A stretch of DNA of 64,000 nucleotides from Chloroflexota bacterium (GCA_016234495.1 JACRBI010000052.1:13789-77788), one strand, 5' to 3'; counted from the first letter of the stretch, positions 3,561-63,273 are shown. Numbers and translations are program-made. Notes: generated by a model from the letters alone, not told the origin.

Positions 3561-3620
3561 AAAGTTTACAAGTTTGAAAGTTAAAAACCTGCTAACTTTC
3601 AAACGTTTCAACATTCAAAC
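3558..3620. repeat. Compound palindrome of 8-nt AAGTTTGA-like units (family also at 22352-22429, 23972-24037, 27318-27363)
   Basis: AAGTTTACAAGTTTGAAAGTT...AACTTTCAAACGTTTCAACATTCAAAC. Confidence 0.8.
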
Positions 3621-3635
3621 ATTGAAGGAGTCATC

Positions 3636-4691: not shown

Positions 4692-4735
4692 GTCACGTTT
4701 TCAACGTGACGTCACGCTACAAGCGTGACCTACAA
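4686..4735. repeat. GTAG-type REP-like palindrome (relatives at 6330-6358, 25370-25398, 29891-29951, 35222-35283, 37821-37850)
   Basis: TTGTAGGTCACG...CGTGACCTACAA perfect 12-bp arms, overlapping the asd stop codon. Confidence 0.7.
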
Positions 4736-4743
4736 TTTCACAC

Positions 4744-4773
4744 TTGACACAATCATGAACCATATGATATAAA
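4744..4773 (+). promoter_or_regulatory. sigma70-type promoter upstream of the SAM riboswitch
   Basis: TTGACA-18 nt-TATAAA with extended TGn. Confidence 0.7.
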
Positions 4774-4792
4774 CCGCAAAATTAAATATTCG

Positions 4793-4911
4793 CTCTTATC
4801 CAGAGAAGCTGAGGGACCGACCCTTTGACGCTTCGGCAACCAAACGAAAGTTCAGGTGCCAAATTCGGCAAATAGGAATGGCGCAAGTCATTCATATCTG
4901 GAAGATGAGAG
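4793..4911 (+). ncRNA. SAM-I (S-box) riboswitch aptamer
   Basis: CTCTTATCCAGAG..GAGGGAC..GACCCT..GGCAACC..GGTGCCAAATTC..GATGAGAG, upstream of methionine genes. Confidence 0.95.
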
Positions 4912-4925
4912 GATGGTGTAGACGT

Positions 4926-4961
4926 ATACCTCTTCTTGTACTTTCAGAAGAGGTATTTTTT
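4926..4961 (+). terminator. Riboswitch-controlled intrinsic terminator
   Basis: ATACCTCTTCT-loop-AGAAGAGGTAT + T run. Confidence 0.85.
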
Positions 4962-5032
4962 CCCCCTAAAGGGGGTAATAACAATATCTCTTCTGAAGGG
5001 CGGATAAACATTATTCAAGAGGAGAAAATAAA

Positions 5033-6322
5033 ATGTCCACAAATGATCGCAAGTTAGGCTTTGCCACCCGCCAGCTTCACGCGGGCTATTCCCCCGACCC
5101 CACTACAGGGAGCCGCGCCGTGCCGTTGTATCAGACAACGAGCTATCAATTCAAGAACACCGAACACGCCGCGAATCTGTTCGCACTCAAAGAGTTGGGA
5201 AATATTTACACGCGTTTGATGAACCCGACCACCGATGTGCTCGAACAGCGCATTGCTTCGCTCGAAGGCGGAGTCGCAGCCCTCGCTTCGAGTTCGGGTC
5301 ATGCCGCGCAGGCGCAGGCGATCTTTACGCTGTGCAACGCGGGCGACCATATCGTGACATCCTCCCGTTTGTACGGCGGGACATACAGCCAGTTCAAGTA
5401 CAGCCTGCCCAAGTTGGGAATCGACGTGACCTTTGTTGACCCCTCCGACCCGAAGAATTTTGAAGCGGCGATCCAGCCGAACACAAAAATCATTTACGGT
5501 GAGACATTGGGCAACCCCGATATTTCCGTCTTCCCGTTTGAGGAAGTTGCGGCGATCGCGAAAAAGCATAATCTCGTATTGTTCATTGATAACACCTTCG
5601 CCACGCCGTACTTGTTCCGTCCGTTTGAATGGGGCGCAAATGTGATCACGCATTCCACAACCAAGTTCATCACCGGCAATGGGACTTCCATCGGCGGCAT
5701 CATCGTGGACGGCGGCAACTACGATTGGACGAGCGCGAAGTTCCCCAACTTCAACACCCCCGACCCGTCTTATCACGGGCTGGTGTACTCCTCCATTGCT
5801 GCGGCGGGACTTCCCCCCTTCGCGATCAAAGCTCGTGTGCATGTGCTGCGTGATATCGGCGCGTGCCAGTCACCGTTCAATTCATGGCAGACCTTGCTCG
5901 GCATCGAAACGCTCAACCTGCGCATGGATCGTCACACGCAGAACGCGCAAGCCGTGGCTGAATTTTTGGAGAAGCACCCGAAGGTCAACTGGGTCAAGTA
6001 TCCCGGGCTCAAGAGTCACCCCGATTACGACCGCGCGAAGAAATATCTTCCAAAGGGCGTCGGCGCGATGATGGGCTTCGGGGTCAAAGGCGGGCTGGAA
6101 GCAGGCAGGAAGTTCATCGAGAGTCTGCAACTGTTCAGCCACGTTGCTAATGTCGGCGACTCGCGCAGCCTTGCCATTCACCCGGGTTCCACCACGCACA
6201 GCCAGTTGACCGAAGAACAGCAGGTCACCGCCGGCGTCAGCCCGGACTTCGTGCGTCTCTCCATCGGTCTCGAGGATATTGATGATATTCTCTGGGATTT
6301 GGATCAGGCGCTCAACGCGTAA
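5033..6322 (+). CDS. metY: O-acetylhomoserine aminocarboxypropyltransferase (sulfhydrylase)
   Basis: [22 protein letters not shown] (PLP Lys), [13 protein letters not shown]. Confidence 0.93.
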
Positions 6323-6375
6323 TTATTATGTAGGGGCGAAGCAATGCTTCGCCCCTACTACAACGCCATAAAATC

Positions 6376-7296
6376 ATGCCTGTAAAAATACCCTCCACCC
6401 TTCCCGCCCGTACTGTTCTCGAAAACGAGAACATCTTCGTCATGGATGAAGACCGCGCCATCCATCAAGACATCCGCGCCCTGCGTGTTGCGATTCTGAA
6501 TCTCATGCCCACCAAGATCGCCACCGAGACGCAGATCCTGCGCCTGCTATCCAACTCCGCGCTTCAAGTTGAAGTGACACTCCTTCACACGGCCACATAC
6601 GAATCCAAAAACACCGACGCCGATCATTTGCTGGAACACTACGTCACATTTGAAGATGTAAAGCATGAAAAATTCGACGGCCTCATCGTCACCGGCGCGC
6701 CTGTCGAGCAGATGCCCTTCGAGGAAGTGGATTACTGGAATGAACTGACTCAGATTCTCGATTGGGCTGAGACGAATGTTGAATCCAATTTTTATATTTG
6801 CTGGGGAGCGCAAGCCGCGCTATTTCACAAATACGGCGTCCCCAAATATGACCTCCCAAATAAGATGTTCGGTGTCTACGAGCACCGCATCCTTTCCTCG
6901 ACCGAAAGCCTGCTGCGCGGTTTCGACGACATTTTCCTCGCCCCGCACTCCCGTCACACCGAGATCCGCCGCGCCGACATTGAAAAGATTCACGACCTGC
7001 AAATCCTCGCCGAGTCAGATGAAGCTGGCGTGTACATCGTCGGCACGAAGGATGGGCGGCATCTCTTCATCACCGGCCACTCGGAATATGATCCGCTCAC
7101 CCTCAAAGGCGAATATGACCGCGATGTGAACAAGGGACTGCCCATCCACGTCCCGCAAAATTATTATCCAAAGAATGACCCAACCCAACCTCCAAATGTT
7201 CGTTGGCGCGGACATGCTAATTTATTGTATGCAAACTGGTTGAATTATTACGTCTATCAAGTCACACCGTACGACCCGAATGAAATCCCAAAATAA
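6376..7296 (+). CDS. metA: Homoserine O-acyltransferase, MetA family (acetyl-type signature)
   Basis: ILNLMP, TGAPVE, ICWGAQA, TGHSEYD. Confidence 0.93.
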
Positions 7297-7309
7297 TGAA
7301 GGGTCACCC

Positions 7310-8353
7310 CTACGCGGTTAATTTGATCAGTGCCGCGCACAACACACCCACCGCTTTTTGATAATCCTCCAAATTGATGTGCTCGTTTGGCGTATGGTCC
7401 AGCGCAGAATCACCGGGACCATAAACAAGAGCGGGACATTTCCACACCGGGGCGACGATGTTTAGGTCAGCGGTTCCTGTTTTATAGACGAAACGCGGCT
7501 CCCCGCCCTGTGAGCGGATTCCGCTTAAGAAAGCACGCACCAGCGGAGTATTTTTCCCGCAATCCCACGCAGGGATGGCGAAACCAATTGGCTCGACCTG
7601 CGTTTGCGGCTCGTGAGTGACCATGTTTAGAATCTCGTACCAATCACTGGGCGAAACGGACACAGGCAATCGGACTCCCACCTTTAATCGCGCCCATTGA
7701 TCAAAATCATTCGAGTCTGAATCCATGCCGCGCAAGGTGAGTAATAATTTATCAAACACCTTTTGCTTTTCAGCGTTGAATGAATCCACGTAGGCTTTGA
7801 CTTTCAGCCACGCATCCACCGCCGCTTCCGCCGCGGTCACTTCTCCGCTCGCCGAATGGACTTGTCCGCGCTTGACCGTCACATTTGCCCACGCGCTTCC
7901 TTTATATCCCAGCGCGACTCGATCCCATTGATTCGGTTCGCCGATGATCGCAAAATCAGGCTTGTATTGGGTCGCCACAAATCTCGCGCCTTCGGAATCG
8001 CGCTCCTCCTCCACCGCGCCGATCACAACGAACTGCCAATCATCTTTCGCGCCAACCTTTGCCACCGCATCTACAAAGCACGCCAGCGGACCTTTCGCAT
8101 CGGCAGAGCCGCGCCCGTACAAAACGCCATCATCCACGCGCACGAGAATCTCCCCCGCCACCGTATCAATGTGACCGAGCAACACCACCTGCCGCGCCCC
8201 CTTCCCCATCACGCCGACAGCATTCCCCGCTTCGTCAATGAACGCATCGTCATAACCCAGTGACTTCATCCGCGCCACGAGCCATTCCACCGCGCCGCGC
8301 TCCTGTCCGGAGGGGCTATATTGGGAGACAAGTCCGATTAGTGTTTCGCTCAT
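7310..8353 (-). CDS. lysK: [LysW]-ornithine/lysine hydrolase (M20 family)
   Basis: LLGHIDTV, GRGSADAKG, VEEE, GEPN..LGYKG, YGPGDSALDHTPNE. Confidence 0.88.
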   Translation of the reverse strand: MSETLIGLVSQYSPSGQERGAVEWLVARMKSLGYDDAFIDEAGNAVGVMGKGARQVVLLGHIDTVAGEILVRVDDGVLYGRGSADAKGPLACFVDAVAKVGAKDDWQFVVIGAVEEERDSEGARFVATQYKPDFAIIGEPNQWDRVALGYKGSAWANVTVKRGQVHSASGEVTAAEAAVDAWLKVKAYVDSFNAEKQKVFDKLLLTLRGMDSDSNDFDQWARLKVGVRLPVSVSPSDWYEILNMVTHEPQTQVEPIGFAIPAWDCGKNTPLVRAFLSGIRSQGGEPRFVYKTGTADLNIVAPVWKCPALVYGPGDSALDHTPNEHINLEDYQKAVGVLCAALIKLTA

Positions 8354-8409
8354 TGTGATTCCTGATTCTGGAAAATGGTTGATGGAGAATGGTTTAAATC
8401 CATTTTCCA

Positions 8410-9585
8410 TTAACCATTTATCTCTTGTGTTAAGGCTTCTGCCAAAACATCAACCAGAAGGTCTATTTGTTCGTACGTGATCACCAGCGGCGGCAATAAA
8501 CGAATCACGGTCATACCTGCATTCAAGGCGATGATCTTTTTCTCCTGCAACGTCTTGAGATATGGCGCGACCTTCTGCTTCATTTCAATACCGATCATCA
8601 AGCCAAGTCCGCGCACTTCGCGGATGTTCGGAGATTGAATTGCGCGCAATTTCTCCATCAAATATGCGCCCTTCGCCGCGGCTTGAGCAGGCAGGTCTTC
8701 GTCGCGCATCACATCCAGCGCCGCATTCGCCGCCGCGCACGAAAGCGGATTCCCGCCAAAGGTGGAGCCATGCACGCCGGGCGTCAGGTTCTTCACGTTG
8801 GGTCCGATCAACACCGCGCCCATCGGCACTCCTCCAGCCAGCGACTTGGCACAGGTCAACAGATCAGGCACAACGTCAAAGTGTTGAACCGCGAACATCT
8901 TGCCCGTGCGTCCAAATCCCGTTTGAATTTCATCCACGATCAACAATGCGCCGCGCTCATCGCAAATATTTCGGGCGGCTTGAATGTATTCGAGCGTAGC
9001 GGGATACACTCCGCCTTCTCCTTGCACCACTTCGAGAATCACTGCGGCGGTTTCTTCGTTCACGGCTTTATCCAACGCTTCGATGTTGTTGTATGAAACA
9101 TGCGAAACGCCGGGCAGAAGCGGCTCAAATCCTTCACGATATTTTTTATTGAATGTCGCCGAGAGCGAGCCGAATGTTCTTCCATGAAATGCGCGCATCG
9201 CGGCGATGAAATTTTTTCGTCTAGTGGAAATTCGAGCGAACTTGAACGCCGCCTCCACCGCTTCAGTGCCCGAGTTGCAAAAGAAGACTCGATCCAAGCC
9301 ATCCATCAGCGACGTAATTTTTTGCATCAACATCGCGCGTTGATCGTTCGGGAAGGTCTCGAACAAAGTCACCAGCGTATTCGCCTGCTTGTAGAGCGCC
9401 TCCGCAATTTTTGGGTGCGCATGACCGAGATTGGCAACGCCGTGCCCCGACGAGCAATCCAAATATTCCACGCCGTCAATATCGAACAACGAAGCGCCTT
9501 GTCCGCGAACGATGGTCAGGGTTTGTTTGGCATACACGCCAGAGGTGTGTTTGTTTTCGATTTCGATTATTTCGTTTGCTTTCAT
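8410..9585 (-). CDS. lysJ: [LysW]-semialdehyde transaminase (class III PLP)
   Basis: [35 protein letters not shown]; operon context. Confidence 0.88.
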
Positions 9586-48798: not shown

Positions 48799-49305
48799 AT
48801 GGAATTAGGTTCAATCTTTCTTATTCTCGCTGTTGCCGTACTCATCGGCATTTATTTATATGTGCCATTCACTGCCCGCGCCCGCCGTGGACGCGCGAGC
48901 GAAACGCTGGAAGTCTCCGCCTTGAAAGCGGAACGCGACCGGGTGATCAACTCGCTGCAAGAATTGGATTTTGACCACAACCTCGGCAAGATCCCCGCCG
49001 AGGATTATCCTGCCCAGCGCGCGCTGCTCCTGCAAAAAGGCGCGGACATCCTGCGCAAACTGGATGAGCTGACTTCGGGAGCGGCTTCTGACAGCAACGT
49101 GGAATCACGGATCGAACAGGCTGCTGCCGCAGTCCGCGCCGATTCATCCGCCACGGTTAAGCCGCTCGACGATGACGATCTCGAATCAATGATCGCCGCG
49201 CGCCGCAAAGAGCACAAGAGCAAGTCCGCTGGTTTTTGCCCGAAATGCGGCAAGCCGGTGCTCGTCACTGATAAATTCTGCCCGTCCTGTGGGAAAGCTT
49301 TGTAA
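48799..49305 (+). CDS. CcmI-like N-terminal region with C-terminal zinc ribbon
   Basis: TM; L.ELDFD..LGKI..EDY; CPKCG..DKFCPSCG. Confidence 0.65.
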   Translation: MELGSIFLILAVAVLIGIYLYVPFTARARRGRASETLEVSALKAERDRVINSLQELDFDHNLGKIPAEDYPAQRALLLQKGADILRKLDELTSGAASDSNVESRIEQAAAAVRADSSATVKPLDDDDLESMIAARRKEHKSKSAGFCPKCGKPVLVTDKFCPSCGKAL

Positions 49306-49391
49306 TTAGCCAGTTAGCGATTGGCGATTAGCAGTTAGCCAATCGCTAAACGCCAACAGCCAAACGCTAAAAATAATCTTTGAGGAATTTA

Positions 49392-51317
49392 ATGAAACTA
49401 CGCCATATCGTTTTAATTACCGCAATCGCAATTTTTCTCGCCGCGTGCAACTTCACCCTCGCCGAGGATGTCACTCCCCCGCCGAATTATGTGCCGCCCG
49501 CCCCTGCGCCAACCATGGGACCATTGTTCCCGCCAAACACACCGGACGTTGAAAACGGCGCGGCGATCTATGTTGAAAAATGCGAACCCTGCCACGGCGT
49601 CACTGGCTTGGGCGACGGTCCGCAAGGTTTACAGCTGCCGGTTTCGGTTGCCGCAATCGGCTTGCCCGCCACCGCGCAAAAGGCATTGCCCTCCGACTGG
49701 TACATTCAGGTAACGCAAGGCAACCTCGAGCGCTTCATGCCGCCGTTCGCAAGTTTGAACGATCAGGAACGTTGGGACGTGGTTGCCTATGCATTAACCC
49801 TGCACACCAGCCCCGATCAAATCGCGCAAGGCAAAACACTCATTGAAGATAGCTGCGCCGATTGCGCGAAAACTTTCAGCAGCCTCGAGATGATGTCGGC
49901 GCTTTCCGAGAATGACCTGATCCAGTTGATGAAAAACGGTCAGGGTGATATCCCCGCTTTTGGAAAATCCTTTACCGATGAAGAAGCCGCCGCCGCTGCC
50001 GCTTATCTGCGGACTTTGACCTTCGCGGCTCCGCCCGCGCCGGTAGCTGTTGCCGCCACCGAGACACCCGTCAGCACTGAGGCGGCGACAACCCCGTCCG
50101 CTGAGACCACGCCAGTTGATGGCACGCAGGCCGCAGTCACGCCAGAAGCGGGTACTGAAGCCGCTGTCACACCTGTTGACGGCACACCTGCCGCAGCGAC
50201 GGAAACCCCAGTCGAAGCGACATTGGCAGAAGGCATGGGCAGTGTCAGCGGTTCGCTGGATAACCAGACGGGCAAGCCGCTGCCAGCCGATATGAAAGTG
50301 ACTCTGCGCGCCATGGAACACGGCAGCGACCCAAGCACCGGGCCGAAAGAGCTTGAGACGTTTGAAGGGCCGGTCAATGCCGATGGGACTTTTGTTTTCA
50401 ATAATGTTCCAGTGCCTGAAAACCGCATTTACATTGCAGATGTGGATGTGAACGGCTCAATTTATCAATCTGGTTTTACGATTGTGAAGGCCGGCGAAAC
50501 GGATCTGGTCATTCCGCCGATCACCATCTTCGAAGGCACATCCGATTATTCGACCTTGCAGATCACATCCCTGCAAATCTACTTTGACTTTGCTGTTGAA
50601 GGTTCGGCGCAGATGTTCTCGGTGTATTCGATTGCGAACATCACCGACAAGACCGTGACAGTGCAGATGACAGGGGCGCAGGATATTCCATTCATTGCCT
50701 TCGCAGAAGGTGCGGAGCCGCTTGGTTTTCAAGCCACGCAGGATACGGCGGCGTTCGTTCAAACAGCAGACGGCTTTGCCATGCCGCCCAGCACATCCAC
50801 CTACGGCCTGATCGCGTTCTCCTCACTCGTCAAAACTGAAAAAATGGAAATCTCGCAAGCCGCGCTGCTGCCCATTGACAATGTCAGCCTGTTCCTGCCC
50901 GAAGGCATGGAAGCAACAGGTGATGGATTAACAGATGAAGGAGTTCAACAGCAGAATGGCGTGAACTATCACGTGTACTCAGCAGGCAGCCTGGAAAAGG
51001 ATGAAAGCGTCAAGTTCACTGTGACCGGCAAGCCGATCTCGGTGGAAGTGAATCCGGATGTTTTGCAGAACAAGACGCTCCTGATCGGCGTCGGCGCGCT
51101 TGGGCTGGTCCTCGTTCTGGCAGGTGTTTGGTTGTTCCTGCGCGAACCAAAGAAAGTGGACGAAACCGACGACGAAGAGAATGAATTTGATGATCCCGAG
51201 TCGCTCATGGATGCCATCATCGCGCTGGACGATCTGCACCGCAGCGGCAAACTGTCTGATGAAGCCTATCAAAAGCGGCGTGACGAGTTAAAGAGCGCGT
51301 TGAAGAGAAGGTCATAA
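49392..51317 (+). CDS. Lipoprotein c-type cytochrome with Ala/Thr/Pro linker, large exported domain and C-terminal TM
   Basis: Lipobox FLAAC; one CEPCH heme motif; MPPF distal Met. Confidence 0.75.
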   Translation: MKLRHIVLITAIAIFLAACNFTLAEDVTPPPNYVPPAPAPTMGPLFPPNTPDVENGAAIYVEKCEPCHGVTGLGDGPQGLQLPVSVAAIGLPATAQKALPSDWYIQVTQGNLERFMPPFASLNDQERWDVVAYALTLHTSPDQIAQGKTLIEDSCADCAKTFSSLEMMSALSENDLIQLMKNGQGDIPAFGKSFTDEEAAAAAAYLRTLTFAAPPAPVAVAATETPVSTEAATTPSAETTPVDGTQAAVTPEAGTEAAVTPVDGTPAAATETPVEATLAEGMGSVSGSLDNQTGKPLPADMKVTLRAMEHGSDPSTGPKELETFEGPVNADGTFVFNNVPVPENRIYIADVDVNGSIYQSGFTIVKAGETDLVIPPITIFEGTSDYSTLQITSLQIYFDFAVEGSAQMFSVYSIANITDKTVTVQMTGAQDIPFIAFAEGAEPLGFQATQDTAAFVQTADGFAMPPSTSTYGLIAFSSLVKTEKMEISQAALLPIDNVSLFLPEGMEATGDGLTDEGVQQQNGVNYHVYSAGSLEKDESVKFTVTGKPISVEVNPDVLQNKTLLIGVGALGLVLVLAGVWLFLREPKKVDETDDEENEFDDPESLMDAIIALDDLHRSGKLSDEAYQKRRDELKSALKRRS

Positions 51318-53796: not shown

Positions 53797-54007
53797 GAAC
53801 TGGACTTTCGCTTGGCATGGTTTGAACGCTTCGCGTTCAGACCTCGAAGCAAAATCGGGAGATTTTCCACTCCAAACAAAAGTTTCATAAGAAAATCCTG
53901 CTCCTTCTGTTTTGGGAGCAGGAAATATGACAAATTCAATCCATTTAAAGTTGAGAATTGCTGTTATCAGAAAGTCCGCTTATAATGTAGGCGGACTTTT
54001 TGATCGT

Positions 54008-55615
54008 ATGACTCGCCGCTGGCTGCTCGGCCTCTTATCCATTCTGATTGCCTTAACCGGCACAGCTTTTACGCGTGCCCTTGCCGCCAACCCTCCGCCT
54101 GGCCCAGACCGTTTTACAGTCATCACCGTGGACTACACCGCCTTCGAATGGTATTTTGCCACCTGGAAGGGATCGAATGTTGTCTGTTCTGTGAAGACAG
54201 ATCACGAAGGTCCCCCCAACCCGGAGGAAGTATATCGGGATTGCGAACTGGCGGTCTACAATAAGTGGGTCTCCCAGCCGCCGTGCATTTACAGAGATTC
54301 AAGTTTGTGCGATGGGTACTACACTTTCCCCGTAAATAGTTGGGCTGCCCAAAAAGAGATTCCGATGCAGCTCCCACCCCCGGCTGCATGGATTTCGCTG
54401 GAAGACTGCCAGCCGGTGCTGAGCACGTCCACCAATATATGCGAAACCACACCGACGCTCGTGATCGCCGGTTACGAACCTGTTCAGAATGAGCGAATCA
54501 TCCGAATCGAAGGGACATATAATGGTCAGCCTTTCGACTGCGACCAGACCGATGTATGCAAATTCCACATCCCTGAAACGGATGTAAAAGGCGTAAGGGT
54601 GGAGTTCTGGGCTTATTCATCTTATGGCGATAGCAGCCTGATTTACAGTGCGCAAGTCCGTGTGCAAAAAGCAAGCGAGAATGATCCCGACCAGGCCTAT
54701 TGGTATGTGGATGTTCTATCTTCGCAATGGGTTGGACAGGCTGTAGCCATGTGCTCCGACTCATGGAATGTGTTCCCGCCGGTTGGCGGACCTCCCGCCT
54801 GGCTGACCACGCCCAAACAAAGCGAAGAACTCAGCAGCGACATTCCCTACACCTACCTCGCGAAAAATTTAATCCTGCAAGGCGCGGTGGATGCAAGTTC
54901 CTGCACCGATGGCGGAATTTCTCCGGACGGCATGGTGAATCAATGCGGGCTGGAAATGGCGCGCGAAGCAGTGACCAACTGGCAAAATCAATTTGATGAA
55001 TTGATCTTAACCACCGCCCGCGAAACAAGCGTACCCGCGCGATTACTTAAAAATCTATTCGCAAGAGAAAGCCAGTTTTGGCCGGGCAGTGGTCAGGCTC
55101 CGGGTGATACGGGTCTGGGTCAACTGACAGAGAACGGCGCAGATACCACCCTGTTCTGGAATCCATCTTTTTATAATCAGTTTTGTGTGCTGGCATTGCC
55201 GGGCGAAACTTGCGGCAAAGGCTACATGCACCTGACCCCGGAAGAAAGACAGGCGCTGCGCCTCGCGCTGGTGACAAGCGTTAACGCAACCTGCAAAGAT
55301 TGTCCGCTTGGGATCGACCTGGCGCGCGCAGATTTTTCAGTCGGCGTTTTTGCGCACAGCATGATCGGAAGCTGCAAGCAGGCGGGACAGGTCATCACAA
55401 ATTACACCGGCAAATCGCCAGGCGATGTAGCCTCCTATGAAGACCTGTGGAAGTTCTCCCTCGTCAATTACAACGCCGGCGGAGGGTGCCTGGCAGAGGT
55501 CATCACCCGCTCGCTTGGCGAAGGCAACACGATTCTCACGTGGGACAACACTTCGCCATTTATCAGCGGCGCATGTGCCGGCGCGCTGGACTATGTGAAC
55601 GACATCAGCAAATGA
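54008..55615 (+). CDS. Exported Cys-rich protein with C-terminal lytic transglycosylase (SLT)-like domain
   Basis: Signal peptide; ARESQF (catalytic E-S), GLGQL, NYNAG. Confidence 0.65.
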   Translation: MTRRWLLGLLSILIALTGTAFTRALAANPPPGPDRFTVITVDYTAFEWYFATWKGSNVVCSVKTDHEGPPNPEEVYRDCELAVYNKWVSQPPCIYRDSSLCDGYYTFPVNSWAAQKEIPMQLPPPAAWISLEDCQPVLSTSTNICETTPTLVIAGYEPVQNERIIRIEGTYNGQPFDCDQTDVCKFHIPETDVKGVRVEFWAYSSYGDSSLIYSAQVRVQKASENDPDQAYWYVDVLSSQWVGQAVAMCSDSWNVFPPVGGPPAWLTTPKQSEELSSDIPYTYLAKNLILQGAVDASSCTDGGISPDGMVNQCGLEMAREAVTNWQNQFDELILTTARETSVPARLLKNLFARESQFWPGSGQAPGDTGLGQLTENGADTTLFWNPSFYNQFCVLALPGETCGKGYMHLTPEERQALRLALVTSVNATCKDCPLGIDLARADFSVGVFAHSMIGSCKQAGQVITNYTGKSPGDVASYEDLWKFSLVNYNAGGGCLAEVITRSLGEGNTILTWDNTSPFISGACAGALDYVNDISK

Positions 55616-55642
55616 AAGCGGACGCAGGCGCGTCCGCTTTTT
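55615..55642. terminator. Bidirectional terminator between convergent genes
   Basis: AAAGCGGACGC..GCGTCCGCTTT. Confidence 0.75.
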
Positions 55643-55669: not shown

Positions 55670-56803
55670 TTAATGCACGTGGGTGCAGGGATCTTCTTCC
55701 AGCGGCAGGTTCTTCATCGCAAATCCAAAAGCCATAATGCCAGCCGAGAAGAGACCAATCGTCACGGCCAGTTCCAGAACATGCGGAACGTACGGTTCGC
55801 CCGCCATGCTGACCAAGCCGATATTCAGCCGGTACAGAATCAGCCCAAGCAGGGTCAGCAGGCCGGCGCGGAAGATCCACGGGGAACTCTTGCGGAATTT
55901 CGGGACGAGCAGGATTGCAATCGGCAGGATGATCCCAATCAGGTTTTCCAGAATAAACATGTTGCCCTGGAATGTGCCGCTGAAGATCAGCCCCAATTCA
56001 CCGGCATAGGCGAGGTCGCCCACTTTGATGAGCAGGAGCAATCCCAGCGTAATCAACATGCCGCGGGCGAGTCCCTGAAAAATTTCGTTGCGGACCTGTC
56101 CGCCAAAGACCTGATGTGAAATTGCGCATTCGAAGATCACCATACCAAAACCGACGGCAATGGCCGAGACAAGGAAGATCAACGGAAGCAGGGATGTGTA
56201 CCAAAGCGGATGCATCTTGAAGGGCACAATCAGAAACAGCGACCCCAAAGAGGATTGGTGCATGGTCGAGAGGGTCACGCCGAGAATCACCACCGGGATG
56301 GAAATTTTCTTTACGAACTGCAGCAGGCTTGTCCAGCCGAGCTTCTCGAGCAAGGGCGGGCTGAATTCCAGAAACAAAACCGCAGTGTAGGTCATCACGC
56401 ACATGCCAACCTCAAACAGCGGGGAATGGAGGTTCCAGTAAACGAGCATGTGCCAGATGCGCTGCGGTTGTCCTAAATCCACCAGCAAGGCGAGGATCAC
56501 CATCAGGTAGCCGAGGAAACCGGTCAGCAGGGCCGGGCGCAGTATGGGGCGATACTTCTCGATGTGGAAAATGTGAACGGTCGCCGCGAGAACGAAAGCG
56601 CCAGCCGAGATCGGCACGCCCACGAGCAGATCAAAACTGATCCAGATTCCCCACGGGCGCGAGTCGCTCAAATTGGACACATGGCTAAATCCATCCACCC
56701 AGCGGAACATGGCCGCGAAGGCGCCCAGCGCGGCAAGAAACACCAGGATGAGCGTGCCAATGGAAACCTGTTTCTTGACAACGGGAAGGGTGATGCTCGT
56801 CAT
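55670..56803 (-). CDS. NrfD/HybB/PsrC-family quinol-interacting membrane subunit
   Basis: PWGIWI.FD, VDLGQP.R.W, SPLFEV..C, LSTMHQSSLG. Confidence 0.9.
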   Translation of the reverse strand: MTSITLPVVKKQVSIGTLILVFLAALGAFAAMFRWVDGFSHVSNLSDSRPWGIWISFDLLVGVPISAGAFVLAATVHIFHIEKYRPILRPALLTGFLGYLMVILALLVDLGQPQRIWHMLVYWNLHSPLFEVGMCVMTYTAVLFLEFSPPLLEKLGWTSLLQFVKKISIPVVILGVTLSTMHQSSLGSLFLIVPFKMHPLWYTSLLPLIFLVSAIAVGFGMVIFECAISHQVFGGQVRNEIFQGLARGMLITLGLLLLIKVGDLAYAGELGLIFSGTFQGNMFILENLIGIILPIAILLVPKFRKSSPWIFRAGLLTLLGLILYRLNIGLVSMAGEPYVPHVLELAVTIGLFSAGIMAFGFAMKNLPLEEDPCTHVH

Positions 56804-57672
56804 GACTTCACCTCCTCTTCCGGAGTGGATGTCTTATTTTTGGTGCGCTGATAAACGGCAGACATCGCCCCGCCCACCCCGAAGAATATGGCCGGCACAA
56901 TGTTCAACGCCCATTGAGTGCGATCCGGCAGCGGCTGGGGATCGAGACCCGGCAGGCCAATCGCTTCAAACGGGACACCAGAAAGAATCAGCACCGAAGT
57001 CCCGCCGCCCTCGAATTCGCCATAGACCCGGTCTTCGAAATATTTGCCGGGGTTGACGGAAATTCGCATCTTGGCAATTTCCAGCAGATCGCCGCGCCTG
57101 CCAAAAAGCAAAGCCTGTTTGGGGCAAATATCGGCGCAGGCCGGGCCAGCCTCGCGGTGGTAACACATCTCACATTTGCGAATGAAAGGATACGCCAGCG
57201 ACCAATCATAGCGCGGGACGCCGAAGGCGCAGGCTTGCATACAATAGCGGCAGCCGATGCACTTGTACGCGTCGTAAACCACCGGGCCGTTTTCTATTTT
57301 GTGCAGCGCGCCAACCGGGCACGAGGCCGCGCAGGCCGGGTCTACGCAGTGCATACATTGATATTTGCGGAAAGACTTTTGCGCGCCATCCTCAGATTGG
57401 TACAATTTGATCAACGTGAAGGTGTTCCCGCTCAGGTCGTCCACATTTTCTTCGGGGAGCTTGTTGTAGGCTTTGCAGGCGCGTTCACATTCGCGGCAGC
57501 CGCTGCATTGCGTTGCGTCGTAAAGCAGCGCCCAATGTTCTTCGAGCGGAAGTTCTTCATTGGATGAAGCGCCTGCTGAAACACAAGCATTGGCTGTCAA
57601 AGCCAGGCTGCCGAGACCGGCCCCGGCAATCTTCAAGAATTCGCGGCGGGAGAGATTGGATTTATTTTGCAT
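56800..57672 (-). CDS. Tat-exported 4x[4Fe-4S] subunit (HybA/NrfC-like) with C-terminal TM
   Basis: SRREFLK; CSGCRECERAC, CMHCVDPACAASC, CIGCRYCMQAC, CEMC..CADIC. Confidence 0.9.
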   Translation of the reverse strand: MQNKSNLSRREFLKIAGAGLGSLALTANACVSAGASSNEELPLEEHWALLYDATQCSGCRECERACKAYNKLPEENVDDLSGNTFTLIKLYQSEDGAQKSFRKYQCMHCVDPACAASCPVGALHKIENGPVVYDAYKCIGCRYCMQACAFGVPRYDWSLAYPFIRKCEMCYHREAGPACADICPKQALLFGRRGDLLEIAKMRISVNPGKYFEDRVYGEFEGGGTSVLILSGVPFEAIGLPGLDPQPLPDRTQWALNIVPAIFFGVGGAMSAVYQRTKNKTSTPEEEVKS

Positions 57673-57676
57673 GACG

Positions 57677-58897
57677 TTATTCCTTCCCCTGCGGGTCATT
57701 CTGCTTTGTGGATTTGGAACGGGTCAACCTTGCGCGGAGGCTGGAGAGTACACCCCAAAGTTTTTCTCCCTTTGAGCTGCCTTCCATCTTGCGCGCAGTG
57801 GTGAATTCGAAGACGCCGATGATCGCAGCGACACCCACCAGCCAGTAAGCCCAACTCCAACTACGTTTGGGAGCGGCGACCAGTTTGTTCAAGTCAGTTT
57901 CAGTCAACGCTGGGAAATCTTCGTTCTCCCACGCAATGGTATCCAGTTCTTCGGCAGTGTAGCCGAGAGCCACAAAATCGGCGCGCAGTTTCTCGTCCAT
58001 GATGTGACAGTCGGTGCATTGCGGCGCAGTTTCGAGGCGCGAAACGCGATGGACGACCGGCCAGTTCATCTGGTCTTTGACAAAACTACCCAGCGCTTCA
58101 TGGCTGGTGCCCGTCCGTTCACCCACACTGGCCGAAACCTCGGAGGTGCAGTCGAAGCCCTTGAAGAAGGTGCTGGTATCTTCGTGCTGATAATTGAACA
58201 GGAATGTGTGCGGCACATCCAGGGTGTGGCAGGAGACGCAGGGGATGTTTTCCTGGAGGTGCATTTTGCCGAGAGACTCTTCCATCTCCCCCAAGTCTTC
58301 CGCGCTGTGACAACTTTTGCACATGTCATCCGGGTTATCGAACAACACCTTCTGGCTGTGCGGGTCGTGGCAGTTCACACAGCGGACTTCGTTGGGCGTG
58401 GTATGCCCGGATAAACGAACTTCACCCAGAGTGGTCGGGTGACATGTCCCGCAGTATTCCTCATCTGAGCGCACTGGAATTTCCGCGGGGGGATGCTCCG
58501 CGCTGCCCTGCCCGTGACAGGCCTCGCACGAAACGCCTTCGGCAATGTATTGTTCAGTGTTCGGGTCGTACGTTGCCTTGTGGCACAGGAGGCACTCGTC
58601 AGCATATTCCATGTTAGCCCAGCCTTCCTGAAAAACAGAGTCGTCGAAGGAGTGGGCATGCGGACTTTCCAGCCAGGCATCATGTTTATCCGGGTGGCAT
58701 TCGACGCAGGCCTTTTCGGGTGGAGCGGCTGTCGGCGGCGGAGTGGACTCTGCTACGGGTTGGGAAATGCCGGTTGTCTGCGCGGCAGGCCGGAGGTCGG
58801 TTTGAGCCGATGCAGTGCCGACGAGCAGGATCATGCTTAACAGTCCGATCAGCAATGCGGTGAGAAAAATCTTATTACGATTGAGTCGCATGTTCAT
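57677..58897 (-). CDS. Octaheme c-type cytochrome with signal peptide and C-terminal TM anchor
   Basis: 8 CxxCH: CVECH, CLLCH, CEACH, CGTCH, CVNCH, CKSCH, CVSCH, CTDCH. Confidence 0.9.
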   Translation of the reverse strand: MNMRLNRNKIFLTALLIGLLSMILLVGTASAQTDLRPAAQTTGISQPVAESTPPPTAAPPEKACVECHPDKHDAWLESPHAHSFDDSVFQEGWANMEYADECLLCHKATYDPNTEQYIAEGVSCEACHGQGSAEHPPAEIPVRSDEEYCGTCHPTTLGEVRLSGHTTPNEVRCVNCHDPHSQKVLFDNPDDMCKSCHSAEDLGEMEESLGKMHLQENIPCVSCHTLDVPHTFLFNYQHEDTSTFFKGFDCTSEVSASVGERTGTSHEALGSFVKDQMNWPVVHRVSRLETAPQCTDCHIMDEKLRADFVALGYTAEELDTIAWENEDFPALTETDLNKLVAAPKRSWSWAYWLVGVAAIIGVFEFTTARKMEGSSKGEKLWGVLSSLRARLTRSKSTKQNDPQGKE

Positions 58898-58932
58898 TTT
58901 GCGAACCTCGAAGAACAGGATGTAAAAATTAT

Positions 58933-59850
58933 TTATGAACTGACTGTCAGCGGGTTGGCCATCTCTGAAGTCAGGAACGTCCAAAAGGCGGCTTGTGATT
59001 TTGACTCGGGGCGGCGGCTGTTGTGGCCGATGTAAATATTGCGGCAGATGTTCAAATCGCGCACACGGATGCGGGCAACTTTGCCGGGGCAGATTCGGTC
59101 AACGACCATTTGCGAAACAAATCCAACTCCGAGCCCTTCCTGGACAGAAAGAGCAATCGCTTCAGAATTTCCGAGAGTGATGAGGATACGCAGGTCTGAG
59201 ATCGAAACCTTGTGCTGTTTGAGCGCCTCGGTGACGGCGTGGAATGTGCCGGAAGAGGATTCGCGCATGATGAAGTCTGCATCGAGCAATTCTTCTGCTT
59301 CTATCTCCTCGCGCTGCGCCCATGGGTGACCCAACGGGGTGATGAGGACGATCGGGTCACAGATGAACGAAACAGCTTCGATATCCGGGTAGTTGGCGTA
59401 GTCCATGCTGAAGAGCGCAAAGTGGACTTCCCCATCCACCAGATTTTGCAGGGCGTCGGTCTGGGGCGTGACCTGACAGGTGACCCGCACCTGGGGATGC
59501 CTGTGATGAAAGCTGGTCAACAAGTGCGGGAGGATGTATTTTCCGGGCGTGGTGCTGCACCCAACGATCAGGTGTCCGAAAATCCCTCCTTTTAGTGAAG
59601 CCATTGTTTCGTCAATCCGCATGGACAGCATGACAGCCTCTCTTGCCAGTGGCAGCAAAGCCATGCCGGCATCGGTCAGTTCCAGGTTTCGGCCATTTCG
59701 GAAAAATAACTGCGTGTCGAAATGGCGTTCCAACCCCTGAATGTGCTGGCTGACGCTGGGCTGGGTCATATGCAGCTGCTGGGCGGCCTGAGTGAAATTT
59801 AGCGCCTCTGCCGCGACTACAAAAACGTTGAGTTGATGGACATCTAACAT
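58933..59850 (-). CDS. LysR-family transcriptional regulator (CysL-like)
   Basis: NFTQAA..LHMTQPSVSQHI..LE, LF.R.GR..ELT.AG, RE.SSGT. Confidence 0.92.
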   Translation of the reverse strand: MLDVHQLNVFVVAAEALNFTQAAQQLHMTQPSVSQHIQGLERHFDTQLFFRNGRNLELTDAGMALLPLAREAVMLSMRIDETMASLKGGIFGHLIVGCSTTPGKYILPHLLTSFHHRHPQVRVTCQVTPQTDALQNLVDGEVHFALFSMDYANYPDIEAVSFICDPIVLITPLGHPWAQREEIEAEELLDADFIMRESSSGTFHAVTEALKQHKVSISDLRILITLGNSEAIALSVQEGLGVGFVSQMVVDRICPGKVARIRVRDLNICRNIYIGHNSRRPESKSQAAFWTFLTSEMANPLTVSS

Positions 59851-59919
59851 GGTTATACCTTTCTTGTGAATATTAACACAAAACACATAAGTCTACAAAG
59901 AGTTTAATGGTGTTTCATA

Positions 59920-59970
59920 ATAGTTTAATCTTATTGTACCTGATAAGCAAAAACTATAAGTAAACATTAT
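59920..59970. promoter_or_regulatory. Candidate LysR operator (inverted pair of 15-bp T-N11-A boxes plus a third box)
   Basis: ATAGTTTAATCTTAT (59920-59934), ATAAGCAAAAACTAT (59943-59957), ATAAGTAAACATTAT (59956-59970). Confidence 0.55.
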
Positions 59971-60036
59971 CAATATCACTTGATTGTAGTGTATATTGCT
60001 TATATAATTTGTGAAAAGTTGTACAAGAAGAGGATT

Positions 60037-61491
60037 ATGAAAACCATGAGGCTATTTCGACAGATAAGTTTATTCATCACCACCGCCCTGTTATTTTCAA
60101 GCTGTGCCCCGGCCAGCCCTGTGGATGCCTCCGCCAATCAAACCACTGCCCAACTGGCGGACGTAAAACTTTCCATTCCGGCCGTACTCCAGCCCGAAAT
60201 GGGAACTGGCGAAGGCGCCGGACCGAATGAATGCCTGAACTGCCACTCGGATAAGGATCGCCTGATCGAAACCGCCAAGCCGGTGGTGGAAGCAGCCGAA
60301 AGCGAGTCAAAAGGCGTTGGCTGAGGGGGCGAGGTGGCTCCGTTGGAGCCATGGGAGAAAGTGCTCGTTGACCTCAAGAAGTTCCCCGAGACGGTGCATG
60401 GTCACATTGAATGCACGGCTTGTCATCAGGGAAGCCAATCGTCAGATAAGGAAACAGCCCATAAGGATATGACCGCCCGTCCGAGCGAGGGAGACCCCAA
60501 CGCCTGCGGCGAATGTCACCCGGATGTGGCCGGAGTTTTCTCCAGCAGCCTGCATTCCGATTTGCAGGGATATTGGACAGCCCTGGATGCGCGTTCCGCG
60601 CCGGAGAATCACCCGCCGCTTGAGCAGGCTTTCAATAATCATTGCTCACGCTGTCACACCTCCTGCGGCGACTGCCATGTGTCGCAGCCTGCCAGCGTGG
60701 GTGGCGGCTTTTTCGAAGGACACGTGTTCGCCCGCACCCCGCCAATGACGCGCTCCTGCACGGCCTGCCACGGCAGCCGCGTGGGCAATGAATTCCTCGG
60801 CAAAAATGAGGGCTTCCCCGGCGACGTTCACTTCCGCGACGGGCGCATGAACTGCGTGGATTGCCACAGCGGACATGAACTTCACGGTCAGCCGGCTGAA
60901 TGCACGCAATGTCATACCAGCCCGGAAGCCATGACGATGAAGCCGGCCGATCATCGCTACGATGGCGTGCAGTCCCCCACTTGCGAGTCATGCCACCCCA
61001 ACACCACGGTCGGCAAGGACAACATTGAAATGCACACCGTCCACGGCGCGGATTTATCCTGTCAGATCTGCCATTCGATCACGTACACCAGCTGCGACGG
61101 ATGCCATGTGGCGATCAGCGAAAAGACAGGCAAGCCGTATTTCGAAACCGAGGCAACTTACTTCACCTTCCTGATCGGAAAGAATCCGTTGATCAGTTAC
61201 ACCCGTCCCTACAAGTTTGTGCCGCTGCGGCATGTGCCGGTCGCCGAGGATAGTTTCTCTTTCTACGGCGAGGACCTGCTCCCGAATTTCAACGCAGCCT
61301 CCACCTGGGTCTATGCCACCCCGCACAACATCCAAAGGAACACCCCGCAGGCCGCCTCGTGCAATGCTTGTCATGGCAATGCAAGCTTGTTCCTGACCGC
61401 AGACAAAGTTAATCCCGAGGAGTTGGAAGCCAATCAAAATGTGATCGTTGAGAGAATTCCTGCTCCCGTCGAAGAATCAACACCCAAATAA
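60037..61491 (+). CDS. Probable selenocysteine-containing dodecaheme cytochrome c lipoprotein (484 aa, in-frame TGA at 60322-60324 = residue 96)
   Basis: Track ORFs 59980..60324 and 60334..61491 share a frame and are separated only by TGA (..SKGVG-U-GGEVAPLEPWEK..); lipobox LLFSSC upstream; 1 + 11 CxxCH motifs. Confidence 0.82.
60334..60352 (+). promoter_or_regulatory. Candidate bacterial SECIS hairpin
   Basis: GTGGCTCC-GTT-GGAGCCAT stem-loop starting about 10 nt after the TGA, G-first loop. Confidence 0.7.
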
Positions 61492-61506
61492 CAAGGAGAT
61501 CGAGAA

Positions 61507-63222
61507 ATGACCAAGAAACTGTATTTGCCCATCGTTCTATTGCTGGCACTCAGCATTTTACTGGGAGCCTGCGGAACGCCCGCTGTCGCCACTGAACCGC
61601 CAGTTGTGCAGACCGAACCACCAGTCATAGCCACTGAACCGCCTGTTATCGCCCCCGATGCCCAGGCCCTGTTCACCGACCTCATCGCCAGTCTCCCCGC
61701 AGACAAGGGCTATGGTTCGGTCAAGTCTGCCGCGTTGAATGAAGAACTCGCAGACAAGGCGCCCTTCCTGCTCGACGTGCGCGAAACCGCCGAAGTTGAG
61801 AAGGATGGCTACATCGAAGGCTCGGTCAACATCCCGGTGCGCGAAGTGCTCAACAACCTCGACAAACTGCCCGGCCTCGACGAACCCATCGTAGTCACTT
61901 GCGCCTCCGGTCACCGCGGCGGCATGGTGATGGCATCCCTTAAACTGCTGGGCTACACAAACGTCCGCAACCTGAACGGCGGTTTGAATGCGTGGAAGAA
62001 AGCCGAACTGCCAGTTGTGACCGGCTCCATGCCCGCAGCCCCGGCCGTCGTCGGCACAGCCATCATCGCCGACCAGGCACTATTCGACATGCTCAATGAT
62101 TTCCTCTCGACCCTGCCCGAGGGATTCAACGCTGTAAAATCTGACAAACTCTCTGAAGAACTTGCCAGCGGCACCCTGCCCGCGATCATTGACGTGCGCA
62201 GCAAAGCCGAATGGGACAAGGATGGATACATCGAAGGCTCTGTAAACATTCCGTTCAGCGACCTGTTTGCAAACCTCGACCAGATTCCCGCGGATAAAGA
62301 CGCGCGCATCATCGTGCTGTGCGCATCCGGCCACCGCGGCGGAATCACCATGATGGCCCTGCGCCTGATGGGCTACACAAACGTCATCAACCTGAATGGC
62401 GGCTTGAACGGCTGGAAGTCGGCTGGCCTGCCCGTAAAAGGCTTGGTCGCCGAGATGGCAGCCTTCATCACCAGCCTGCCCGCCGATGCCGGTTTCTACA
62501 GCATCAAATCAGACAAGCTCAACGAACTGCTGGTCGAAACCCCGCCCTTCATTGTGGACGTGCGCGAAGCCTCCGAACTCGAAGCCAATGGCTACATCGC
62601 CGGCGCGATCAACATCCCGATCCGCGAACTGCTGAAGAACCTCGACAAACTGCCGGGCAAGGATCAGAAAATCATCATCACCTGCGCATCCGGTCATCGC
62701 GGCTCACTCGGCATGATGTCGCTGCGCCTGCTGGGATATACGGACGTCGTCAACCTCAACGGCGGAATGAACGGCTGGATCAAGGCTGAATTCCCGGTCG
62801 AGAAGACCGCTCCCGCCGCCCCGACGGCTGGCACCGCTCCCGAAGTGGATGCCGACAAACTGGCTGCTCTCGACGCTTACCTGAGCGCCCTGCCTGAAGG
62901 TTTTGGCGCCGTAAAATCCCCCGATTTCAACACCGAGCTCGTTGCCGGGACAATTCCCTTCATCCTCGACGTTCGCACCCAGGAAGAATGGGACGCTGAC
63001 GGCCACATCGACGGCGCTGTGCTGGTTTCGATCAACGACCTGGCCGCCAACCTGGCCAAACTTCCCGCCGACAAGGCTGCGCCCATCGTTGTCACCTGCA
63101 AGTCCGGGCACCGCGGCGCCATGGCGCAAATGTACCTGCAATTCCTCGGCTACACCAGCATCCGCAACTTAAACGGCGGCATGAACGGCTGGATCGCCGC
63201 CGAACTGCCTGTCGTCAAGTAA
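61507..63222 (+). CDS. Lipoprotein with four tandem rhodanese (sulfurtransferase) domains
   Basis: Lipobox LLGAC; four LDVR/IDVR..E..GYI.G.. blocks with loops CASGHR x3 and CKSGHR; NLNGG.N.W. Confidence 0.9.
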   Translation: MTKKLYLPIVLLLALSILLGACGTPAVATEPPVVQTEPPVIATEPPVIAPDAQALFTDLIASLPADKGYGSVKSAALNEELADKAPFLLDVRETAEVEKDGYIEGSVNIPVREVLNNLDKLPGLDEPIVVTCASGHRGGMVMASLKLLGYTNVRNLNGGLNAWKKAELPVVTGSMPAAPAVVGTAIIADQALFDMLNDFLSTLPEGFNAVKSDKLSEELASGTLPAIIDVRSKAEWDKDGYIEGSVNIPFSDLFANLDQIPADKDARIIVLCASGHRGGITMMALRLMGYTNVINLNGGLNGWKSAGLPVKGLVAEMAAFITSLPADAGFYSIKSDKLNELLVETPPFIVDVREASELEANGYIAGAINIPIRELLKNLDKLPGKDQKIIITCASGHRGSLGMMSLRLLGYTDVVNLNGGMNGWIKAEFPVEKTAPAAPTAGTAPEVDADKLAALDAYLSALPEGFGAVKSPDFNTELVAGTIPFILDVRTQEEWDADGHIDGAVLVSINDLAANLAKLPADKAAPIVVTCKSGHRGAMAQMYLQFLGYTSIRNLNGGMNGWIAAELPVVK

Positions 63223-63239
63223 ACCCAAACTCACAAACC

Positions 63240-63273
63240 AACTGCCCGCGAGTTTCCTCGCGGGCAGTTTTTT
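63240..63273 (+). terminator. Intrinsic terminator ending the multiheme-rhodanese operon
   Basis: AACTGCCCGCGAG-TTTC-CTCGCGGGCAGTT + T run. Confidence 0.85.

Follow-up and report, generated by a model that had tools for sequence, protein, structure and literature searches.

A predicted selenocysteine-containing dodecaheme cytochrome and its adjacent rhodanese form a widespread gene pair that may serve quinone-linked sulfane-sulfur chemistry

What reaction could be carried out by a cluster whose proteins carry 20 c-type hemes, an apparent selenocysteine codon and four rhodanese domains? This question is raised by positions 55,670 to 63,273 of a 64,000-nucleotide stretch from a Chloroflexota bacterium (GCA_016234495.1, JACRBI010000052.1:13789-77788), the whole of which is called here the window. 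A preliminary description made from the sequence alone had proposed a new selenium-dependent sulfur respiration system of six divergent genes, encoding an NrfD-type subunit, an Fe-S subunit, an octaheme cytochrome, a LysR regulator, a selenocysteine-containing dodecaheme cytochrome and a tetra-rhodanese. Every one of these parts was recovered at its position (Table 1). We find that the dodecaheme cytochrome and the rhodanese recur together across several phyla, and we favour, at a probability of roughly 0.55, a function as an oxidoreductase of sulfane sulfur (polysulfide, persulfide or selenite) that is linked to quinones and coupled to the rhodanese, preferentially in the reductive direction.

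The assignment of the in-frame TGA to selenocysteine (Sec), already made in the preliminary description, is very well supported by codon conservation, by a compensated hairpin and by homologues with Cys at the same site. Over all loci (designated by L numbers), the codon is TGA in 158 of 162: in 81 of 83 Anaerolineae loci and in 77 of 79 cross-phylum loci, which also include one TGT and one TGC (L093, L146). The two Anaerolineae exceptions are L064, which has TGG at the DNA level, and L056, which has Trp in the translation (its codon was not read directly). Moreover, Cys occupies the site in the homologous proteins P0106, P0111 and P0117 and in L089 (TGT), and Cys-Gly-Gly is invariant there in the distant full-length homologues P0149, P0152, P0159, P0161, P0163, P0179, P0187 and P0197.

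A hairpin resembling a selenocysteine insertion sequence (SECIS), GGCUCC-GUU-GGAGCC, begins 11 nt past the UGA and has a minimum free energy of -22.9 kcal/mol (z -2.8). Among its Anaerolineae counterparts (71 distinct sequences), pairing holds at 99.5% of the stem positions; G:C pairs are in part replaced by C:G, and G:U wobbles occur. The five hairpin codons (positions +4 to +8) are each represented by a single codon in 78 of 78 genes, whereas equally conserved residues just beyond the hairpin are encoded by three to five synonymous codons. Across phyla, a hairpin of at least 5 bp is found at the same offset in 151 of 156 UGA genes, with more than 15 different compensated stems, and it has decayed where TGA became CTG or TCA. 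No Rfam family matched this hairpin.

Read as a genuine stop, the TGA would split the locus into genes for a small monoheme lipoprotein and for a protein with 11 heme motifs that is not exported, or mark it as a pseudogene. This is how the gene appears in public annotation, as one or two 'hypothetical proteins', since gene callers and RefSeq give either two open reading frames (ORFs) or only a fragment of 385-401 aa. We find this explanation hardly credible: the frame, the TGA and the compensated hairpin are shared between phyla, some full-length homologues encode Cys at the site, and the 385-aa, 11-heme part downstream has no signal peptide. Because of this last feature, the cytochrome would mature only as one protein across the UGA. 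The family is thus annotated as 'hypothetical protein' because gene callers stop at the UGA; a protein search returned more than 2000 homologues, nearly all called as ~385-aa fragments starting just past it.

In a few variants, the Sec site is occupied by Trp, Leu or Ser. A translation-table artefact was ruled out for those checked at the DNA level, with TGG in L064 and CTG, TTA and TCA in L090-L092. The Trp variants L056 (at about 8271) and L064 (at 8295) keep a paired hairpin and a downstream rhodanese gene, the pairing in L056 being maintained through compensatory changes; Sec may have been lost recently in these two, or the site may be read differently. In L092, the cytochrome gene is present in tandem (833-2272 and 2602-4041): the upstream copy has Ser (TCA) and a decayed hairpin, and the downstream copy has kept its UGA and is followed by a rhodanese gene.

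The window cytochrome contains 12 CxxCH motifs, one before the UGA and 11 after it, together with a lipoprotein signal peptide and a lipobox Cys (Cys23) that is found in most but not all family members. The Sec residue, U96, belongs to the motif G-V-G-U-G-G ahead of heme 2; the Gly-rich loop that holds it connects the monoheme N-terminal part to the 11-heme body. In family alignments, the only conserved Cys were those of the heme motifs, the lipobox and the Sec site, and 13 non-motif His residues are conserved for 12 hemes, which gives no sign of an open or Sec-ligated heme. AlphaFold2 modelled the cytochrome body with a mean predicted local distance difference test (pLDDT) score of 72.5 and a predicted template modelling (pTM) score of 0.67 from a 121-sequence alignment, as against a pLDDT of 31 from an 8-sequence alignment. 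Foldseek gave no significant match for the cytochrome in the PDB (library to 2026-04-08, which the entries of MccSep, a Sec cytochrome described below, may postdate). Pfam returned generic multiheme domains only, and NCBIfam had no model for any clade of the family. Likewise, in a full-text literature search, MccSep was the only Sec multiheme cytochrome to be found, and none was described from Chloroflexi. It should be noted that JGI names many C-terminal fragments of the cytochrome 'thiosulfate/3-mercaptopyruvate sulfurtransferase', though they have no rhodanese domain; this name was probably carried over from fused cytochrome-rhodanese forms.

The gene that follows the cytochrome gene encodes a protein with the lipobox LLGAC and four catalytic loops, CASGHRG, CASGHRG, CASGHRG and CKSGHRG (C-[AK]-S-G-H-R); four such loops are present in 44 of 78 orthologues. 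That the two proteins work together, as had been proposed, is sustained by the wider comparison. In 76 of 76 Anaerolineae loci, the next gene downstream of the cytochrome encodes a multi-rhodanese protein. Beyond these, an adjacent rhodanese gene on the same strand was detected with hidden Markov models in 41 of 50 well-flanked cross-phylum loci and by tBLASTn in five more, giving ~46 of 50. In P0173, P0175 and P0264, the cytochrome is naturally fused to two rhodanese domains. In L089, a Cys-type locus (TGT), all six genes of the layout are present; in L090 and L091, both of the Leu type, neither the rhodanese nor the LysR gene is left. This pattern, together with that of L092, indicates that the redox residue and the rhodanese go together. 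We conclude from these gene neighbourhoods that the conserved unit is the Sec-cytochrome with its adjacent rhodanese, which are predicted to be functionally coupled. Since the cytochrome has no second conserved Cys beyond its heme motifs, the lipobox aside, the rhodanese Cys would be the natural partner thiol of the Sec.

We also considered whether the cluster could be a general conduit for extracellular electron transfer to minerals, humics, electrodes or partner cells, in which Sec would act as a heme ligand or tune the potential and the rhodanese would be an accessory. Anaerolineae are rich in multiheme cytochromes, which are commonly interpreted as parts of such conduits (bioRxiv 10.1101/2021.08.23.457424). 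In addition, the window cytochrome has weak similarity to MtrC/MtrF and DmsE-type cytochromes, and a variant with neither Sec nor Cys still stands beside the NrfD arm (L090). However, a conduit would leave unexplained the near-universal rhodanese, the fusions and the joint loss of the rhodanese and Sec/Cys, and Sec is costly and almost always catalytic in known enzymes. We therefore hold this role to be very unlikely.

How widely is the pair distributed? The window sequence itself was found only in DNA runs of groundwater metagenomes, and close relatives occur in at least 573 species-level genomes; the best 80 genomes of this close set, whose loci were retrieved with 8-kb flanks, belong without exception to the Chloroflexota and for the most part to the Anaerolineae. 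When 1.84 billion cluster representatives were searched with a profile, 189 clusters were obtained at E <1e-30 and 1147 at E <1e-3, and a locus search with distant Cys-type members added at least 493 further genomes. The preliminary description had set the system on a monoderm cell surface, but a restriction to monoderm Chloroflexi does not hold: the wider set, whose loci all share a G-E-G-U-G-G site, extends to Desulfobacterota, Bacillota, Actinomycetota, Phycisphaerae, Nitrospirota and Rokubacteria/Methylomirabilota, and Cys forms occur in one Methanosarcinales and one Myxococcota genome. For example, the cytochrome gene of L104 (Desulfobacterales) is followed by one for a 208-aa rhodanese. 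The cultured Bacillota Anoxynatronum buryatiense Su22 (L128) has a run of four genes at 4548-9403, encoding a rhodanese, the Sec-cytochrome, ResB and CcsA. This compact cassette brings its own system II cytochrome maturation genes (ResB, CcsA) and could be mobile.

Table 1. Features of the cluster, with positions counted from the first letter of the window
Feature	Position	Strand	Remarks
10-bp GC-rich hairpin, candidate bidirectional terminator	55617-55640		sequence read directly
NrfD-family membrane, quinone-interacting subunit (HmcC/HybB-like), 377 aa	55670-56803	-	PF03916, E 2e-25
Tat-exported 4x[4Fe-4S] subunit (HmcB/HybA/FdnH-like), 299 aa	56800-57699	-	twin-arginine translocation (Tat) signal SRREFLK
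Membrane-anchored octaheme cytochrome c	57677-58897	-	8 CxxCH; probable start ATG at 58897
LysR-type regulator, closest to LysR_Se	58933-59850	-	HTH_1 and LysR_substrate domains
Conserved operator	59920-59972		ATAGTTT..CTTAT-N8-ATAAG (contains T-N11-A), then ACTATAAG-N6-TTATC
Sigma-70-like promoter of the cytochrome-rhodanese operon, TTGATT-17-TATAAT	59980-60008	+	10/12 consensus match
Lipoprotein dodecaheme cytochrome c, predicted selenoprotein, 484 aa	60037-61491	+	single frame across TGA
UGA, predicted selenocysteine codon	60322-60324	+	TGA conserved among orthologues, frame open into 11 heme motifs
SECIS-like hairpin	60334-60352	+	core stem 60336-60341 pairs with 60345-60350, loop GUU
Lipoprotein with four rhodanese domains, 571 aa	61507-63222	+	PF00581 x4, E 8e-84
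Intrinsic terminator of the cytochrome-rhodanese operon	63240-63269	+	13-bp stem, 9 G:C pairs, then TTTTTAT

The genes on the opposite strand could supply the pair with a link to the quinone pool. The NrfD-family protein scores 90.5 bits against PF03916 (cut-off 25.8) and falls below the cut-offs of both NCBIfam models that it resembles most, HmcC (291.6 bits, cut-off 550) and HybB (288.9 bits, cut-off 450). The Fe-S subunit has 16 Cys in four groups of four, a Fer4_11 domain and a C-terminal transmembrane helix; it matches HmcB at 250 bits and HybA at 238 bits, below the equivalog cut-offs, and its best solved relatives are FdnH (1kqf_B, E 3e-29) and PsrB (2vpw_B, E 6e-17). The octaheme cytochrome, which has an N-terminal signal or anchor and a C-terminal transmembrane helix, gave only generic multiheme Pfam and weak PDB matches. 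The Tat signal, lipoboxes and transmembrane anchors agree with the earlier statement that the enzyme parts are extracytoplasmic and membrane-tethered, and all components are predicted to face the outside of the cytoplasmic membrane. No molybdopterin subunit was found between the terminators or in related loci, so that the molybdenum-free character also stands.

Of 65 loci, 47 have this NrfD/Fe-S/octaheme arm upstream, encoded on the opposite strand. Thus, the six-gene divergon of the preliminary description does recur, but it is one architecture of several, and the conserved core is the two-gene pair; the neighbourhood search that had been called for found the two arms together often, not always. 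The NrfD/Fe-S pair of the window is of the HmcBC/HybAB type; in most other loci it is QrcCD/DsrO-like, ~30% identical and non-orthologous. The existence of two arm types indicates that the quinone module was exchanged while the cytochrome-rhodanese pair stayed. The same layout was seen in dozens of species with differing flanking genes, and for this reason the arrangement goes far beyond chance.

To our knowledge, no multiheme cytochrome selenoenzyme was known before August 2026. The first point of reference is MccSep (ExtKL, GSU2937-2936) of Geobacter sulfurreducens, a Sec pentaheme polysulfide/selenite reductase that is essential for elemental sulfur (S0) respiration (PMC13510729). Its operon, ext, encodes the rhodanese ExtH, the porin ExtI, ExtJ, MccSep/ExtKL and the cytochrome/Fe-S proteins ExtM-O (PMC13510729). 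By analogy with MccSep and ExtH, we favour the reductive direction for the window system, that is, reduction of polysulfide, persulfide or selenite.

The catalytic end of such a system would consist of the lipid-anchored 12-heme Sec-cytochrome and the lipid-anchored four-domain rhodanese. The rhodanese cysteines would take up, as a persulfide, either sulfane sulfur derived from polysulfide/S0 or thiosulfate or the selenium of selenite; the selenolate of U96 would attack this persulfide, forming an Se-S intermediate. The heme chain would then give (or take) two electrons, releasing sulfide and regenerating the selenolate. Electrons would pass between the menaquinone pool and the dodecaheme cytochrome via the NrfD-like, 4x[4Fe-4S] and octaheme subunits, and the LysR_Se-like regulator, acting on conserved dyads, would turn the operon on, possibly according to selenium status.

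Several observations weigh against this proposal. The variants with Trp, Leu or Ser show that the cytochrome body can persist without its redox residue, and the Sec loop has a pLDDT below 50 in the AlphaFold2 model, so that the distance between loop and heme cannot be read from it. SelA and SelB had no match in the window or in the 83 loci (tBLASTn with Escherichia coli queries). The NrfD/Fe-S/octaheme arm is absent within ~6 kb upstream in 18 of 65 loci. Contigs of bioreactor and wastewater metatranscriptomes matched a Leptofilum locus over only 25-150 nt at 90-95% identity, too short and ambiguous to inform on co-expression. Finally, two points bear on direction: the associated NrfD/Fe-S modules are closest to Hyb, Hmc and Qrc, known quinone reducers, and menaquinol is a weak reductant for polysulfide or thiosulfate. 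Concerning the Sec machinery, no tRNA gene was found in the window; the Chloroflexi as a group have the Sec trait (PMC5322559).

In the opposite direction, sulfide, polysulfide or the sulfane sulfur of thiosulfate would be oxidised at the Sec/rhodanese site. The 12-heme and 8-heme cytochromes, with the Fe-S subunit, would pass the electrons on to menaquinone, to conserve energy or to detoxify sulfide. Hyd-2 and Qrc deliver electrons to menaquinone, and with potentials of about -270 mV for HS-/S0 and about -74 mV for menaquinone, the transfer from sulfide to menaquinone is downhill and the reverse uphill. Given that the window module scores best against HybB/HybA and HmcC/HmcB, and those of most other loci against QrcD/QrcC/DsrO, the oxidative direction fits these modules at least as well. 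Many host genomes also come from oxic-anoxic interfaces such as groundwater, lakes and activated sludge. On the other hand, the module scores are all under the equivalog cut-offs, NrfD-type modules run in both directions, and no sulfite- or thiosulfate-handling partner (Sox, SoeABC) was found in the cluster. Moreover, MccSep, the only characterised Sec multiheme enzyme, is a reductase (PMC13510729). Taken together, we regard oxidation as a serious but unlikely alternative.

The preliminary description placed the operon under LysR control. The regulator is closest to NF040786 (LysR_Se), with 225.3 bits against a cut-off of 250 and 161 bits for the next family; the LysR proteins of L001 and L003 have the same top family, at 220 and 212 bits. 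Its gene is adjacent in ~59 of 65 loci, either divergent or downstream. In 32 of 42 LysR-cytochrome intergenic regions, from different species, the CTTAT-N8-ATAAG dyad, an [AC]CTATAAG box and the promoter elements are kept, and the -35 and -10 elements hold the same place from locus to locus. These conserved sites agree with LysR control; what may differ from the earlier claim is the signal. Associated with organisms that decode Sec, LysR_Se has been put forward as a sensor of selenium status (PMC5322559), and the window regulator may likewise gate expression on selenium supply rather than sense the substrate. A GTGAAAA sequence just past the -10 element (window 60012-60018) is conserved in many of these intergenic regions and may indicate where transcription starts or an additional site of regulation.

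The regulator also raises the possibility that selenium or tellurium oxyanions are the substrate, the system being a selenite/tellurite reductase or serving selenium acquisition, with a perselenide on the rhodanese and LysR_Se as the tie to selenium status. Indeed, its best family is named 'selenium metabolism-associated LysR' and is correlated with Sec-using organisms, the analogous Geobacter ext operon is curated as selenite/tellurite reduction and MccSep does reduce selenite, and selenite reduction driven by menaquinol is thermodynamically easy. Still, MccSep prefers polysulfide sevenfold (PMC13510729), and environmental selenite is scarce when set against the cost of a 20-heme chain across more than 1000 species genomes. 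A LysR_Se gene beside a selenoprotein gene may also just match expression to Sec supply. We consider a dedicated selenium or tellurium function decidedly improbable and retain sulfane-sulfur chemistry, mainly reductive, as the preferred function of the pair.

The surroundings of the six genes are in line with the boundaries drawn before. Downstream, the strong intrinsic terminator was confirmed; upstream, a candidate bidirectional terminator separates convergent genes, and a terminator scan found a weaker version of its hairpin at 55626-55639. The ccm operon reported upstream is indeed present, as a system I cluster (CcmF, H, G-like, A, B, C) at 45.5-53.8 kb. Within this cluster, between the CcmF/H/G and CcmA/B/C genes, window 49380-51317 encodes a protein of 645 aa in which two class I cytochrome c domains are combined with a long linker rich in Thr, Pro, Ala and Glu, a transmembrane helix at the C-terminus and a charged tail; the position of this gene is kept in L002. 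A small zinc-ribbon protein is encoded at 48799-49305, between the genes for the CcmG-like thioredoxin and this dihaem cytochrome.

Window 53912-55615, between the ccm genes and the NrfD gene, encodes a Cys-rich product of 567 aa. Its N-terminus may include a hydrophobic segment, and its match to the lytic-transglycosylase (SLT) family is only faint. At the same position, L002 has a gene of similar size, also with a faint SLT match, and L030 has a 552-aa ORF. Beyond the rhodanese terminator, the gene for a Fer4 and CCG membrane protein of the HdrD/DsrK type starts at 63444 and runs off the window end at 64000. It is complete in L002 (13319-15304, 661 aa) and lies downstream of the pair in ~15 related loci, some of them without the NrfD arm; its product could be a second membrane or thiol-disulfide link, or its position mere synteny.

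If the proposed function is correct, a large contribution to sulfur and selenium cycling in groundwater, sediments and wastewater has gone unannotated, and a respiratory or detoxifying activity on sulfur/selenium could be predicted for many Anaerolineae that are abundant but uncultured, as well as for other anaerobes. It would also provide a natural example of the convergent evolution of Sec-heme chemistry. Reduction of S0 or polysulfide in organisms without Psr would become a directly testable question, for which Anoxynatronum buryatiense Su22, as a cultured carrier, offers an experimental entry point. Whatever the function, the family exposes a systematic gap in the annotation of selenoproteins in metagenome-assembled genomes.

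Compared with known systems, the predicted chemistry has several distant parallels. Like the His/Cys-ligated sulfur cytochromes TsdA, SoxAX and DsrJ, the pair would place a chalcogen nucleophile beside a redox cofactor and act on S-S bonds, and like the Gly-Cys-Sec-Gly arm of mammalian thioredoxin reductase, it would carry Sec in a Gly-flanked, probably mobile loop; there is no sequence relationship in either case. In PsrABC/Sud of Wolinella succinogenes and in Phs/Ttr, NrfD-type and 4x[4Fe-4S] subunits also feed an extracytoplasmic sulfur-reducing catalytic subunit, and Sud is a rhodanese-fold carrier that delivers polysulfide sulfur. The molybdopterin catalytic subunit of these enzymes is, however, absent here, and 8-heme and 12-heme cytochromes with Sec are found instead. 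The left arm, a multiheme cytochrome c with a 4-cluster Fe-S protein and an NrfD-like subunit, recalls Hmc/Nhc/Ohc and Qrc of sulfate reducers and HybA/HybB of hydrogenase 2; unlike Hmc and Qrc, the window octaheme belongs to no specific family and the operon has no cytoplasmic HmcF or QrcB-type subunits.

The closest parallel remains MccSep. Both it and the window protein are Sec multiheme cytochromes read over an in-frame UGA with a SECIS hairpin and split by gene callers into two ORFs, and both are molybdenum-free and extracytoplasmic, with a rhodanese-domain lipoprotein and cytochrome/Fe-S supply genes alongside. They differ in heme number (12 in the window protein, 5 in MccSep) and in the place of Sec, which lies in an N-terminal G-x-G-U-G-G loop in the former and in a C-terminal immunoglobulin-like domain (D-G-U-P) in the latter. 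In contrast to MccSep, the window family has no conserved heme-ligating Cys. MccSep holds Cys239 and Sec325 within one protein (PMC13510729). Furthermore, the window rhodanese scores only 16.5 bits against ExtH (NF040901, cut-off 200), there is no porin (ExtI), and the membrane module is NrfD-type. The NCBIfam models for the ext operon (NF040886, NF040901, NF040943) did confirm a true ext operon in L085 (NF040886, 455 bits; ExtH NF040901, 301 bits).

NF040886 had no match in the window at E up to 0.01, the MccSep chains 9wt8/9wt9 gave no phmmer or profile match at E up to 10, and hhalign against MccSep reached 61% probability over CxxCH-rich columns only. By these comparisons, the Sec-cytochrome family is not homologous to MccSep. 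As MccSep/ExtH has been published, the concept of a Sec multiheme cytochrome acting with a rhodanese as a polysulfide reductase is not new, and in this respect the novelty claimed for the system does not hold; the family itself is distinct. The window system thus appears to repeat the logic of MccSep and ExtH with unrelated proteins and to be much more widespread. We tentatively propose, with a little less than even confidence, that it represents a second, independently evolved and wider family of Sec multiheme cytochromes, in which the chalcogen pair is split over two proteins to form a molybdenum-free respiratory sulfane-sulfur/selenium oxidoreductase.

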